The notes under the pieces are model-generated. The model ran no database searches. It had not been told where the DNA came from and saw only the letters and a list, made by a program, of their open reading frames with translations. A DNA stretch of 64,000 bases from Escherichia coli (GTDB lineage Bacteria; Pseudomonadota; Gammaproteobacteria; Enterobacterales; Enterobacteriaceae): assembly GCF_030013205.1 (NCBI RefSeq), contig NZ_CP122648.1; one strand, given 5' to 3'. Within the stretch, counting starts at the first letter, position 1. Each line of letters opens with the position of its first letter. The translations under genes and the position numbers were made by a program. Below are positions 23,587 through 30,297 of the stretch, piece by piece.

Positions 23587-24993
23587 TCAGAAGATGGTGA
23601 ATGGTGCGATTACCATAAATTTCACGTCACGCTCATCCTGGAAAATGTTGCCGTAACCACCGCCCCAGCTTGGGATGTCGGAGTGGTTGTCGTATTCGGT
23701 GAAGTGCAGTTTGAACATCGTGCCTTTGGCGCGACCGTCCTGAATGGTGTAGACCGCATCCAGGCTGTAGGCAGACTCTTCAATAGTCCGGTTTTTGTCG
23801 TAGTACGCATCCGGATTGCTCTGCCAGGTAGCGGGTTTAGCATCCCATGCGTAAACGTAGGAAGCGCCGATGGCGAAGCCTGGAAGATTCCAGTTTTTCA
23901 GGTCATACATCGCACCGAAGAAGACCGCTTTTTCGCCGTTGGCGTTGAAGTCAGAACGGTTATCCCACCAGATATCCAGGCGACCGTTCGAGGAAGCGTA
24001 GGTTGGAGTCATACGTTGCAGGAAGTATCCCTGCTGACCGTCGGCTTTAACCCAGGTGCCTTCCAGACGCAAATCCACTACATCAGCCGCCCGGTAACCA
24101 AAGGTCAACGCTTGCAGCCAGGCAGTGCCGTCGTAAAGGTCGTTGACGCTGCGATCGTCAACTTTATCGCGCGTACCGTAGAACTGGTAGCTGGTGGTTA
24201 ACGGGCTACCGGCGATATCAAATTTGTAGCTGGCTTTGGCAAAGTATTGATCGATATACCCTTCCGCCTGACCAAATGCTGCTTCCAGTACGAAGTTATT
24301 TTTGAAGTCGTATTTCGCACCGATGGAGTGCAGATAATCAACTTTGGTGGTTTTATCGTTCTGATAAAACTCATCCATTTCCAGATGCCACGGTGCTTTG
24401 TATTCGTTGGTCCACATGTAGGAGAAACTCAACGCACCCGCATCGCCGTAATCAAAATTCGCCCCGGCTTCCGCACCCTGATAAGTACCCGGCATAAAGC
24501 TCCAGTGCGGCGCTAACAGCGTCTGACCGGTTGGCTGAATATAACCTGCCCTCGCCCACACCGGACCGTATTTAAATTTGGCCGCTGCTTTATACAGGCT
24601 TATACCGCTTTTGTCGCCGGACCAGTCTTCGTCATAGGCTTTATTGCTTTTTGAAAACGCGATTTCGTTCGGGTGAGAGCTGTCACCGTTTTCCGCCATT
24701 TCAATCGCCGTAAACGCAGCAATATCAAGGCCGAACATATCAGCAGCATAACCAGACTGAAAATCGAGGTTGGCGTTCCAGGTGGAGTGAGAAAGGTTGG
24801 TTTTGTATTTGTCGCCGTCGGTAACATCTTTACGGTCGCGTTCACGCTGCCAGTAATAGATACCGCCGGTTAAGGTTGAATCGTCGATGAATCCTTCGGC
24901 GCGAGCCTCCGGCATTGCCATAAAGCCCGACATTGCTGTAACACCGGCGATAGCCAGCGCCAGCGTACTACGTTTGCCACTAAACGTACGCAT
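23587..24993 (-). CDS. chiP: ChiP (YbfM) chitooligosaccharide outer-membrane porin (468 aa)
   Basis: Track ORF with signal peptide [32 protein letters not shown] and C-terminal F, OprD-like porin. Confidence 0.93.
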
Positions 24994-25349
24994 GGGTTAA
25001 TCCTCTTTGACGTATAAATTGCTGCACCAAAGGTGAACAGCGAAAAAAATAAAAATTAAAAAAGTAGCGTTGAGAAAAGTCTCGCTGACTACAGGAACAG
25101 ACTATTTTTCGCGACGCGAATTATCAATCTCTTTCTGTAACCAGAATGTAAGAACATGAGCAACCGCACATATTTTGATGATTTTTGTTACAAGGCTTAA
25201 GTTTGCAGTTGAAAGGCTTGCAGAAGAATAAAAACGTGAAATTCCAGCAAGATGAAAGCGGTTACATTTTATTTAATTATGTTTTGTGATTTTAAATTTG
25301 TTTTATGGATAAATTGCGAAGCGGAATTAATTCGCGAAGAAAAGCAGAA

Positions 25350-26052
25350 TAAATATCCTCCGGCATAGCCGGAGGTTTTTCAAATGCGCCTATAAGGCTC
25401 TCTTACCAGCCGCGCCCTAACAGGCGCACACGATCTGACATTTGCATCCAACTTCGTTACTTACGGCCCGTAAACGGGCTGCCCGGATAGGGAATCGATA
25501 ACTGCTCTCCCATTTTATCCTCTTCAAGCTGGTGCTTTATGTAATCCTGTATCTTCGCCGTGTTCTTACCCACCGTATCGACGTAGTACCCTCTGCACCA
25601 GAACTCTCTGTTCCTGTATTTGAATTTCAAATCACCAAACTGCTCGTAAAGCATCAGACTGCTTTTCCCTTTCAGATATCCCATAAAGCCGGATACGCTC
25701 ATTTTGGGCGGGATCTCCACAAGCATATGGATATGATCTGCACAGCATTCAGCTTCAAGAATCCGTACGCTTTTCCACTCACACAGCTTTCTCAAAATAC
25801 TGCCTATTGCTCTACGCTTCTCTCTGTAGAACACTTGTCTTCGGTATTTTGGCGCAAAAACTATGTGATATTTACAGTTCCATCGGGTGTGCGCTAAGCT
25901 CTTTTCGTTCCCCATTGGGACCCCCTTTTGATTTCTTGTTTGACACTTGCAGTTGCCAGACCGCAAGGTGTTTTAACAAATCAAAAGGGGTTTTAATAAC
26001 TGGCTCAAAGCTGAAAGCTTTCCGGAACCCCCAGCCTAGCTGGGGGTTTTCT
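25350..26052 (-). mobile_element. IS200 (IS200/IS605 family, about 0.7 kb) inserted between chiP and glnS; boundaries approximate
   Basis: Contains an IS200-type tnpA plus hairpins near both ends (26026..26048 aacccccagcctagctgggggtt; 25357..25375 cctccggcatagccggagg); no IS of this kind at this position in K-12 as I recall. Confidence 0.7.
25457..25915 (-). CDS. tnpA: IS200 transposase TnpA (Y1/HUH family, 152 aa)
   Basis: Track ORF frame trimmed to MGNEKSLAHTRWNCKYHIVFAPKYRRQVFY...; matches IS200 TnpA as I remember it, including the HIH motif (ADHIHML) and catalytic Tyr region. Confidence 0.9.
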   Translation of the reverse strand: MGNEKSLAHTRWNCKYHIVFAPKYRRQVFYREKRRAIGSILRKLCEWKSVRILEAECCADHIHMLVEIPPKMSVSGFMGYLKGKSSLMLYEQFGDLKFKYRNREFWCRGYYVDTVGKNTAKIQDYIKHQLEEDKMGEQLSIPYPGSPFTGRK

Positions 26053-26058
26053 GTGCAC

Positions 26059-26090
26059 AAAAAAACGCCGCAGAGCGCGGCGTTTTGGAT
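26059..26090 (-). terminator. Rho-independent terminator of glnS
   Basis: On the minus strand: gccgcgctctgcggc hairpin followed by about 7 T. Confidence 0.55.
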
Positions 26091-26106
26091 TGTTTGCATG
26101 TTTCAT

Positions 26107-26140
26107 GCCGGATGCGGCGTAAAAGCCTCACCCGGCCTGG
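26107..26140. repeat. REP-like palindromic element
   Basis: gccggatgcggcgtaaaagcctcacccggcc resembles REP consensus. Confidence 0.45.
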
Positions 26141-26152
26141 TAGAACTTAAAA

Positions 26153-27817
26153 TTACTCGCCTACTTTCGCCCAGGTATCACGCAGCCCAACGGTGCGGTT
26201 AAATACCGGTTTTTCCGCCGTAGAATGGCGGCTGTCGAGGCAGAAATAACCTTCACGCTCAAACTGGAATGCTTTACCCGCTACCGCGTCTTTCAGAGAC
26301 GGTTCAGCAAAGCCCTGTTTGATCACCAGCGATTCCGGGTTAATCACCGACAGGAAATCATCCGCAGCACCTGGGTTCGGCACGCTGAACAGACGATCAT
26401 ACAGGCGGATTTCAACCGGCAGCGCATGTGCCGCGCTCACCCAGTGAATAACGCCTTTCACTTTACGACCATCTGCCGGATCTTTGCTTAAGGTGTCGGC
26501 GTCATAAGTACAGAAAATGGTGGTGATATTGCCTTCGGCATCTTTCTCCACGCGTTCAGCCTTAATGACGTAAGCATTACGCAGACGCACTTCTTTACCC
26601 AGCACCAGACGTTTGTACTGCTTGTTAGCTTCTTCGCGGAAATCGGCGCGGTCGATCCAAATCTCACCGCTAAACGGCACCTGACGGCTACCCATTTCCG
26701 GTTTGTTCGGATGGTTCGGCATGGTAACAATTTCGCCTTCGCCCTGGTAGTTTTCGATAACCAGTTTCACCGGATCGATAACCGCCATTGCGCGCGGGGC
26801 GTTTTCGTTGAGATCTTCACGGATGCAGGATTCCAGCGACGCCATCTCAATGGTGTTGTCCTGCTTGGTCACGCCGATGCGTTTGCAGAACTCACGAATA
26901 GAAGCCGCAGTGTAACCACGACGACGCAGACCGGAAATGGTCGGCATACGCGGGTCATCCCAGCCTTCAACATGCTTGTCGGTCACCAGCAGGTTCAGCT
27001 TACGCTTGGACATCACGGTGTATTCCAGATTCAGGCGCGAGAATTCGTACTGGCGCGGGTGAACAGGAATGGTGATGTTGTCCAGTACCCAGTCGTACAG
27101 ACGACGGTTGTCCTGGAACTCAAGCGTACACAGAGAGTGCGTAATACCTTCCAGCGCATCGCTGATGCAATGTGTGAAGTCGTACATCGGGTAGATGCAC
27201 CACTTGTTGCCAGTCTGGTGGTGTTCAGCAAATTTAATGCGGTACAGCACCGGATCGCGCATTACGATAAACGGCGACGCCATATCGATTTTCGCACGCA
27301 GGCAGGCTTTACCTTCTTCAAAACCGCCGGCACGCATTTTTTCGAACAGCGCCAGGTTCTCTTCGACGCTACGGTCGCGGTACGGGCTGTTTTTACCCGG
27401 CTGCGTCAGGGTGCCACGGTATTCGCGGATCTGTTCCGGCGTCAGTTCATCAACATACGCCAGGCCTTTATTGATCAGTTCGATCGCATAGGCGTGGAGC
27501 TGATCAAAATAATCGGAGGAGTAACGGACGTTACCAGACCAGTGAAAACCTAACCACTCAACGTCGTTTTTGATCGACTCAACATACTCGATATCTTCTT
27601 TTACCGGGTTAGTGTCGTCGAAACGCAGGTTGCACTGGCCTTTATAGTCCTGGGCGATCCCGAAGTTCAGGCAGATAGATTTCGCATGCCCAATATGCAG
27701 ATAGCCATTCGGCTCCGGCGGGAAACGGGTGTGTACTGTGGTGTGCTTACCACTGGCCAGATCTTCATCGATGATCTGACGGATAAAGTTAGTCGGGCGG
27801 GCTTCTGCCTCACTCAT
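26153..27817 (-). CDS. glnS: Glutaminyl-tRNA synthetase (554 aa)
   Basis: Track ORF; class I aaRS motifs HIGH ([12 protein letters not shown]) and KMSKS-like (VMSKR). Confidence 0.97.
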
Positions 27818-30085: not shown

Positions 30086-30112
30086 AAATTTAATTCGTAT
30101 CGCAAATTAAAA
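30086..30112. promoter_or_regulatory. NagC operator in the divergent nagE-nagB control region
   Basis: Palindromic aaatttaattcgtatcgcaaattaaaa; a second A/T-rich candidate operator at about 30182..30207. Confidence 0.55.
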
Positions 30113-30141: not shown

Positions 30142-30297
30142 TATCGTTATCATCACTCCCTTTTACTGGCTAAACCAGAAAACTTATTTTATCATTCAAA
30201 AAATCAGGTCGGATTGACGCCTGTCTGCGCAAATCCAGGTTACGCTTAAAGATGCCTAATCCGCCAACGGCTTACATTTTACTTATTGAGGTGAATA

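Follow-up and report, generated by a model that had tools for sequence, protein, structure and literature searches.

The interval between glnS and chiP in the window (the whole stretch of Escherichia coli DNA that was analysed, 64 kb in length) holds a segment of about 0.7 kb that an earlier note, written from the sequence alone, regarded as a copy of IS200. This raises the questions of what the segment is and where exactly it ends, whether it was inserted or is ancestral at this site, and whether it changes the expression of chiP. Taken as a whole, the locus is very probably best explained by an IS200C element that inserted 3′ of the T-run of the glnS terminator, the insertion being a lineage marker and, as we infer, neutral.

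Identity and anatomy of the element

The genes of this region are arranged in the order fur (+), chiQ (-), chiP (-), the IS200C element, glnS (-) and nagE (-), the element sharing its orientation (minus strand) with glnS and chiP (Table 1). The left end of IS200C is the very next base after the T-run of the glnS terminator, whose hairpin (26066-26082) and T-run (26059-26065), read on the minus strand, are intact; the same hairpin is present, unchanged, in genomes with an empty site. At the other end, 355-357 bp of native DNA, contiguous with chiP, separate the element from the chiP start codon, in agreement with the location given in the earlier note, i.e., directly after the glnS terminator and about 360 bp upstream of chiP. 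The REP-like unit is part of the host locus rather than of IS200C and is present in empty-site genomes too, and the Rfam family naRNA4 matches 26060-26137 weakly, with 29 bits, which is less than its gathering score. In the alignment, the glnS stop codon and the terminator are roughly 130 bp further apart in K-12, the extra DNA including more REP-like sequence.

Table 1. Coordinates of the features discussed, in positions of the window
Feature	Position	Strand	Remarks
chiP (chitoporin) CDS	23587-24993	-	ATG at 24993; downstream neighbour of IS200C
NagC "ybfM/chiP proximal" operator GATAATTCGCGTCGCGAAAAATA	25103-25125	-	exact match to the published 23-mer
IS200C element	25348-26058, equally 25350-26060	-	net 711 bp (empty versus filled comparison)
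Right-end subterminal hairpin CCTCCGGC-TAT-GCCGGAGG, then ATATTTATT	25357-25375	-	terminator-like on both strands
tnpA	25457-25915	-	intact ORF, ATG at 25915; 152-aa Y1 (HUH) transposase
tnpA 5′UTR stem-loop pairing the GGGG Shine-Dalgarno	25922-25990	-	fold z -5.55; published nt 69-138
Left-end perfect 10-bp hairpin AACCCCCAGC-TAG-GCTGGGGGTT	26026-26048	-	element nt 12-34; folding
glnS intrinsic terminator	26059-26086	-	hairpin CGCCGC-GCUCU-GCGGCG + T7 (terminator scan, folding)
Single REP-like palindromic unit	26096-26140	-	between the glnS stop (26153) and the terminator
glnS CDS	26153-27817	-	stop end 26153; upstream neighbour, co-oriented with IS200C

The product of tnpA was assigned by several independent models. 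It matches the Pfam family Y1_Tnp (PF01797) with an E-value of 3.8e-38 over positions 2-121 of its 121-position profile, and the NCBIfam equivalog transpos_IS200 (NF033573) with 147.7 bits against a cut-off of 55. It also aligns over its full length with the solved IS200/IS605 transposases 2ec2, 2f4f, 2a6m (IS608) and 2xm3 (ISDra2), with its HUH motif DHIHML and its tyrosine region RGYY in register with DHIHLF and RSYF of 2ec2. Pfam, NCBIfam, the homology to solved structures and the Rfam match described below agree on a Y1-transposase gene of IS200 type, which is how the earlier note had read it, correctly. Within the ~0.7 kb element, tnpA is the sole ORF with a family assignment, i.e., tnpB is absent among the family-assigned ORFs, and the other ORFs overlap tnpA in other frames or on the other strand. 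On a 100%-identical locus, RefSeq names the protein WP_000526135.1, "IS200/IS605-like element IS200C family transposase". Over the window, identity to E. coli CFSAN018748 (swine, Denmark) is 100%, and RefSeq already carries annotations of the element, its family and the insertion itself (CFSAN018748, CFT073).

On the minus strand, the element starts with GTGCACAGAA. The flanking hairpins that had been noticed do both exist, with folding z-scores of -6.1 for the left end and -3.7 for the right end. The core of the left-end hairpin (26028-26046) and the right-end hairpin (25357-25375) each occur once in the 64-kb window, which therefore contains one copy of IS200C. A small hairpin sits between the left-end hairpin and the long 5′UTR stem-loop. 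The ends themselves, GTGCACAG... and ...ATATTTA(TT), are not complementary, i.e., terminal inverted repeats are absent. Published IS200 possesses a bidirectional rho-independent terminator at nt 12-34 and a stem-loop sequestering the Shine-Dalgarno sequence at nt 69-138 (PMC4513863). In the fold obtained here, on a stretch beginning 1-2 bases outside the element, the hairpin occupies 13-35 and the stem-loop 71-139, matching the published IS200 anatomy within a base or two.

The Rfam model STnc490 (RF01405) matches 25925-26048 on the minus strand with 146.4 bits (gathering score 56) over its full length (positions 1-124 of 124). Its match lies on the strand that is sense for tnpA, but art200/STnc490 as published is an antisense RNA, encoded opposite the tnpA 5′UTR (PMC4513863); what the match indicates is thus the region and not the strand of the small RNA. 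The element is confirmed as a single intact member of the IS200 group (IS200/IS605 family) with the full canonical anatomy; the name of the iso-form, IS200C, follows that given in RefSeq to the identical protein.

Ends, empty site and origin of the insertion

The ends were defined by comparing empty and filled sites at three loci, i.e., glnS-chiP, fabF-pabC and mdoH-yceK. A core of 709 bp (25350-26058) is common to every IS200C copy examined, and at fabF-pabC and mdoH-yceK the filled sites exceed the empty ones by this core plus a TT found on both sides, giving a net 711 bp. The TT dinucleotide is assignable to neither end, and beyond it the empty/filled comparison at the three loci reveals no target-site duplication. 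On the plus strand, the empty site of Ec1115 and of a K-12-type genome reads seamlessly GCAG-A6-CGCCGC, in which CGCCGC is the start of the terminator hairpin, while the filled site of the window reads GCAGAA / TAAATATCC...CTGTGCAC / A7-CGCCGC (slashes mark the junctions). The predicted excision product, with 25350-26060 removed, aligns gap-free to other genomes at 99.8% identity, and its one mismatch to strain 144 is a substitution inside the T-run. In genomes with the same type of flank, the T-run has the length of that in the excision product, apart from one substitution. The segment had been delimited in the earlier note as 25350-26052; its low end stands (25348/25350), but the high end lies 6-8 bp further out (26058/26060).

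The T-run of the glnS terminator is itself polymorphic in E. coli, being T6 in K-12 and Ec1115, T7 in SE15 and T5AT in strain 144. The junction lies in this strain-variable run, and the exact cleavage positions are therefore ambiguous, with end calls blurred by one base. A net length of 712 bp, obtained in a first comparison with K-12 and Ec1115, was rejected on account of this length polymorphism.

Of 5426 complete E. coli genomes, 5392, among them K-12, have an uninterrupted site, and 23 have a filled one, namely 18 swine isolates, one night-heron isolate and four assemblies of the uropathogen CFT073. The swine isolates are 99.5-100% identical, and their records name ETEC, O139:H1 or unnamed strains; the CFT073 assemblies show 97% identity across the 1001-bp query, which comprised the IS and its flanks. 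Together with the gap-free excision product, these counts identify the segment as an insertion rather than ancestral DNA. The difference from K-12 that the earlier note had claimed holds, since K-12-type genomes align without the element. The insertion can serve to mark strains or lineages, i.e., the swine-associated E. coli group (ETEC and O139:H1 by record) and CFT073, and it neatly illustrates, in natural genomes, the kind of place in which IS200 inserts. Some indirect signs suggest that the element may be mobile. Up to 30 more places match IS200C in the source genome and 19-33 in related genomes, other loci hold copies with 98-100% identity, the copies compared at unrelated loci differ from that of the window at 1-5 of 709 positions, and different variants occupy the glnS-chiP site in two backgrounds.

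An alternative is that the segment is ancestral after all, or that it is another Y1 element such as a REP-associated tyrosine transposase (RAYT) or a different member of the IS200/IS605 family, and this has next to no probability. A REP unit does adjoin the element, and RAYTs are related to IS200 transposases. However, the NCBIfam model REP_Tyr_transpos (NF047646) reaches 32.2 bits, far below its cut-off of 80, while transpos_IS200 exceeds its own, and inverted REPs do not flank the element, there being one REP unit, on one side, which empty-site genomes have as well. The predominance of uninterrupted sites and the near-identical copies at many unrelated loci also speak against this alternative, which is effectively refuted by the sub-cut-off score, the missing inverted REPs, the empty sites and the dispersed copies.

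The origin of the CFT073 copy was considered separately from the identity of the element. CFT073 carries a different variant of IS200C at the glnS terminator, in the same position and orientation as in the window. Of 709 positions, 9 separate this variant from the window copy, which in turn has a single difference from the copy behind fabF in an unrelated strain. As far as the junction, the flanks in CFT073 are identical to those of SE15, a strain with an empty site, and the right-end junction of CFT073 has one T more than that of the window. It looks as if two IS200C variants may have hit the glnS-terminator site independently, which is the most economical reading of these sequences. A single insertion behind both the swine-lineage and the CFT073 filled sites, through common ancestry with precise losses elsewhere or through transfer by recombination, is improbable. 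The identical position and orientation in the two backgrounds would suit it, and precise excision is documented in the IS200/IS605 family (IS608, ISDra2; PMC2806898), so that losses would leave no scar. However, the window copy is far closer to the fabF copy of an unrelated strain than to that of CFT073, each copy sits in flanks typical of its own background, the extra T sets the CFT073 junction apart, and outside the swine/heron group the only filled genomes are the four assemblies of CFT073 itself.

For the insertion, a route is offered by the biology of the family. The IS200/IS605 elements move by a single-strand "peel and paste" transposition that is carried out by a Y1 HUH transposase. 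In this mechanism, a single-stranded circle integrates 3′ of a short target without duplicating it (PMC2806898). By analogy, IS200C would have integrated into single-stranded DNA at the terminator hairpin and its T-run. The glnS sense strand would be the lagging-strand template, the strand that the family uses; this argument is based on the K-12 map, where glnS is co-directional with replication, and the GC skew across the window is too weak to place the locus on a replichore.

Placement behind terminators and the upstream region of chiP

The position directly behind a terminator is shared by other copies. At each of the 13 distinct E. coli sites of IS200C that were examined, the left end comes right behind a GC-rich hairpin with a T-rich run that ends in TT, and this hairpin is usually the terminator of a co-oriented upstream gene, e.g., fabF or mdoH. 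Of ten further loci, nine have a co-oriented upstream gene whose end lies about 190 bp ahead of the tnpA start codon, which puts it a few tens of bp upstream of the left end. A cross-species scan with the 23-nt left-end hairpin, limited to one genome per species, gave 120 loci, from Yersinia pestis (IS1541), Vibrio, Brenneria, Dickeya, Edwardsiella and several metagenome-assembled genomes. When a terminator-like flank was defined as a perfect stem of at least 5 bp with a loop of 3-8 and a T-rich tail, such flanks were called at 93 of the 118 distinct sites across species, versus 6 of 1405 positions taken at random from these loci, and the 25 uncalled flanks proved by eye to be mostly imperfect hairpins.

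Two further observations were made in the scan. In Y. pestis NCTC5923, some IS1541 copies stand in tandem, one copy having its left end immediately behind the right-end hairpin and ATATTTATT of another, which suggests that the right end of the element may resemble its own insertion target. The exact 23-nt left-end hairpin was also observed in metagenome-assembled Bacillota, Mailhella/Desulfovibrio, Oxalobacter, Saccharibacteria and Elusimicrobiaceae, mostly about 100-200 nt from the end of the retrieved stretch, some of these being true contig ends. These occurrences could reflect a wide horizontal spread of IS200-like elements, or assembly or binning artefacts at repeats.

On balance, we lean towards the view that elements of the IS200 group select the 3′ edge of intrinsic terminators, i.e., a hairpin plus T-run ending in TT on the top strand of the element, which would mimic their own right end, and not simply any AT-rich DNA. 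Such a preference would explain the choice of the glnS-terminator site. If the selection is real, the glnS terminator would be a recurrent hot spot, hit independently in CFT073 and in the swine lineage, and the tandem IS1541 copies would be explained as well. The pattern of placement agrees with the known mechanism of the family (PMC2806898), but it would fit both a choice of target and the survival of harmless insertions. A 2025-26 preprint reported that terminator-like sequences are statistically associated with IS200/IS605 elements and read them as a brake on transposase expression rather than as a choice of target (10.1101/2025.07.22.666184); the terminator-adjacent placement is not claimed here as new. 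As a rule for the IS200 group, placement after a T-run helps to annotate the exact ends of IS200 copies, and placement behind a terminator suggests that IS200 insertions are usually harmless to neighbouring genes.

The earlier note had further supposed that the IS, lying upstream of chiP, could alter its expression. The published proximal NagC operator of ybfM lies at K-12 position 707425 (PMC3098098, Tables 1 and 2); its exact counterpart in the window is intact and lies 223 bp from IS200C, on the chiP side. A NagC matrix was built from nine published sites with the chiP operator left out, and this operator is the top site of the whole window, with 21.9 bits. The NagC operators of nagE-nagB in the window (30089-30111, 21.7 bits; 30183-30205, 17.4 bits) were both training sites of the matrix, and the left-out chiP operator is therefore the independent check of the scan.

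That the published chiP site is called "proximal" hints at the possible existence of a distal operator. Weak NagC-like 23-mers are found at 25278-25300 (13.5 bits) and 25308-25330 (11.0 bits), in AT-rich sequence 20-70 bp from the right end of the IS. As a distal operator near the junction, these best candidates were rejected, both scoring below all training sites (16.9-22.9 bits); if either did act as a distal operator, the change in the adjoining DNA might be of consequence. A sigma-70 consensus scan of the intergenic region gave one promoter-like site, fewer than in shuffled sequence, and is uninformative on the chiP promoters.

Judged from these sequence features, no known control sequence of chiP is interrupted or displaced by IS200C, and the insertion is probably essentially neutral for the expression of both chiP and glnS, because the element is insulated by a terminator of its own at the left end and a terminator-like structure at the right and lies upstream of all the known chiP control sites. 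That it nevertheless alters chiP expression, through a displaced site, looping or curvature, read-out from tnpA or blocked read-through from glnS, is unlikely. The element does lie 355 bp upstream of the chiP ATG, beside an AT-rich stretch with the weak NagC-like sites, and tnpA is co-oriented with chiP. Against this, the known operator is untouched, the glnS terminator, unchanged here, puts a stop to read-through in empty-site strains already, the right end of IS200C carries a terminator-like hairpin, and the weak NagC-like sites fall short of every training site. Moreover, published IS200 has a weak tnpA promoter, a strongly repressed tnpA and a bidirectional terminator at its left end (PMC4513863). 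An effect on chiP is thus conceivable, but with the operator and 355 bp of upstream DNA intact, the sequence lends the supposition no support. If the insertion did affect chiP, this would have a bearing on chitosugar uptake in these strains.

Comparison with related elements

The window copy is the E. coli iso-form IS200C, with a net 711 bp as compared with 707-709 bp for IS200 of Salmonella enterica. The two share a single tnpA for a 152-aa Y1 transposase, the hairpin at nt 12-34, the stem-loop at nt 69-138 and the art200/STnc490 region; the Salmonella element likewise has no terminal inverted repeats and has a subterminal right-end hairpin, and nothing substantial differs. In IS1541 of Y. 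pestis and Y. pseudotuberculosis, the 23-nt left-end hairpin is identical and the right-end hairpin, followed by ATATTTATT, is the same, and this element, too, lies directly after hairpin-plus-T-run sequences, whereas its first bases at the left end are GTGCCCAGAA and those of IS200C are GTGCACAGAA. Its loci in Y. pestis include tandem copies, and Yersinia averages ~40 copies per genome (PMC4513863).

More distant relatives are IS608 of Helicobacter pylori and ISDra2 of Deinococcus, which have homologous Y1 HUH transposases (E-values of 4e-19 and 2e-16, respectively) and share with IS200C the subterminal hairpins, the lack of a target duplication and the insertion 3′ of a short target. However, both carry tnpB, which IS200C lacks, and their targets are defined tetra- or pentanucleotides, whereas the apparent target of IS200C is a post-hairpin T-run ending in TT. 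The target of IS608 is TTAC. That of ISDra2 is TTGAT (PMC2806898).

A similar placement is found in elements with unrelated machinery, since group IIC introns use a ribozyme and a reverse transcriptase, in contrast to the Y1 DNA transposase of IS200C. Group IIC introns (bacterial class C) insert just after the stem-loops of intrinsic terminators, co-oriented with the upstream gene. At such sites, an insertion does no harm, and the element is protected from read-through.
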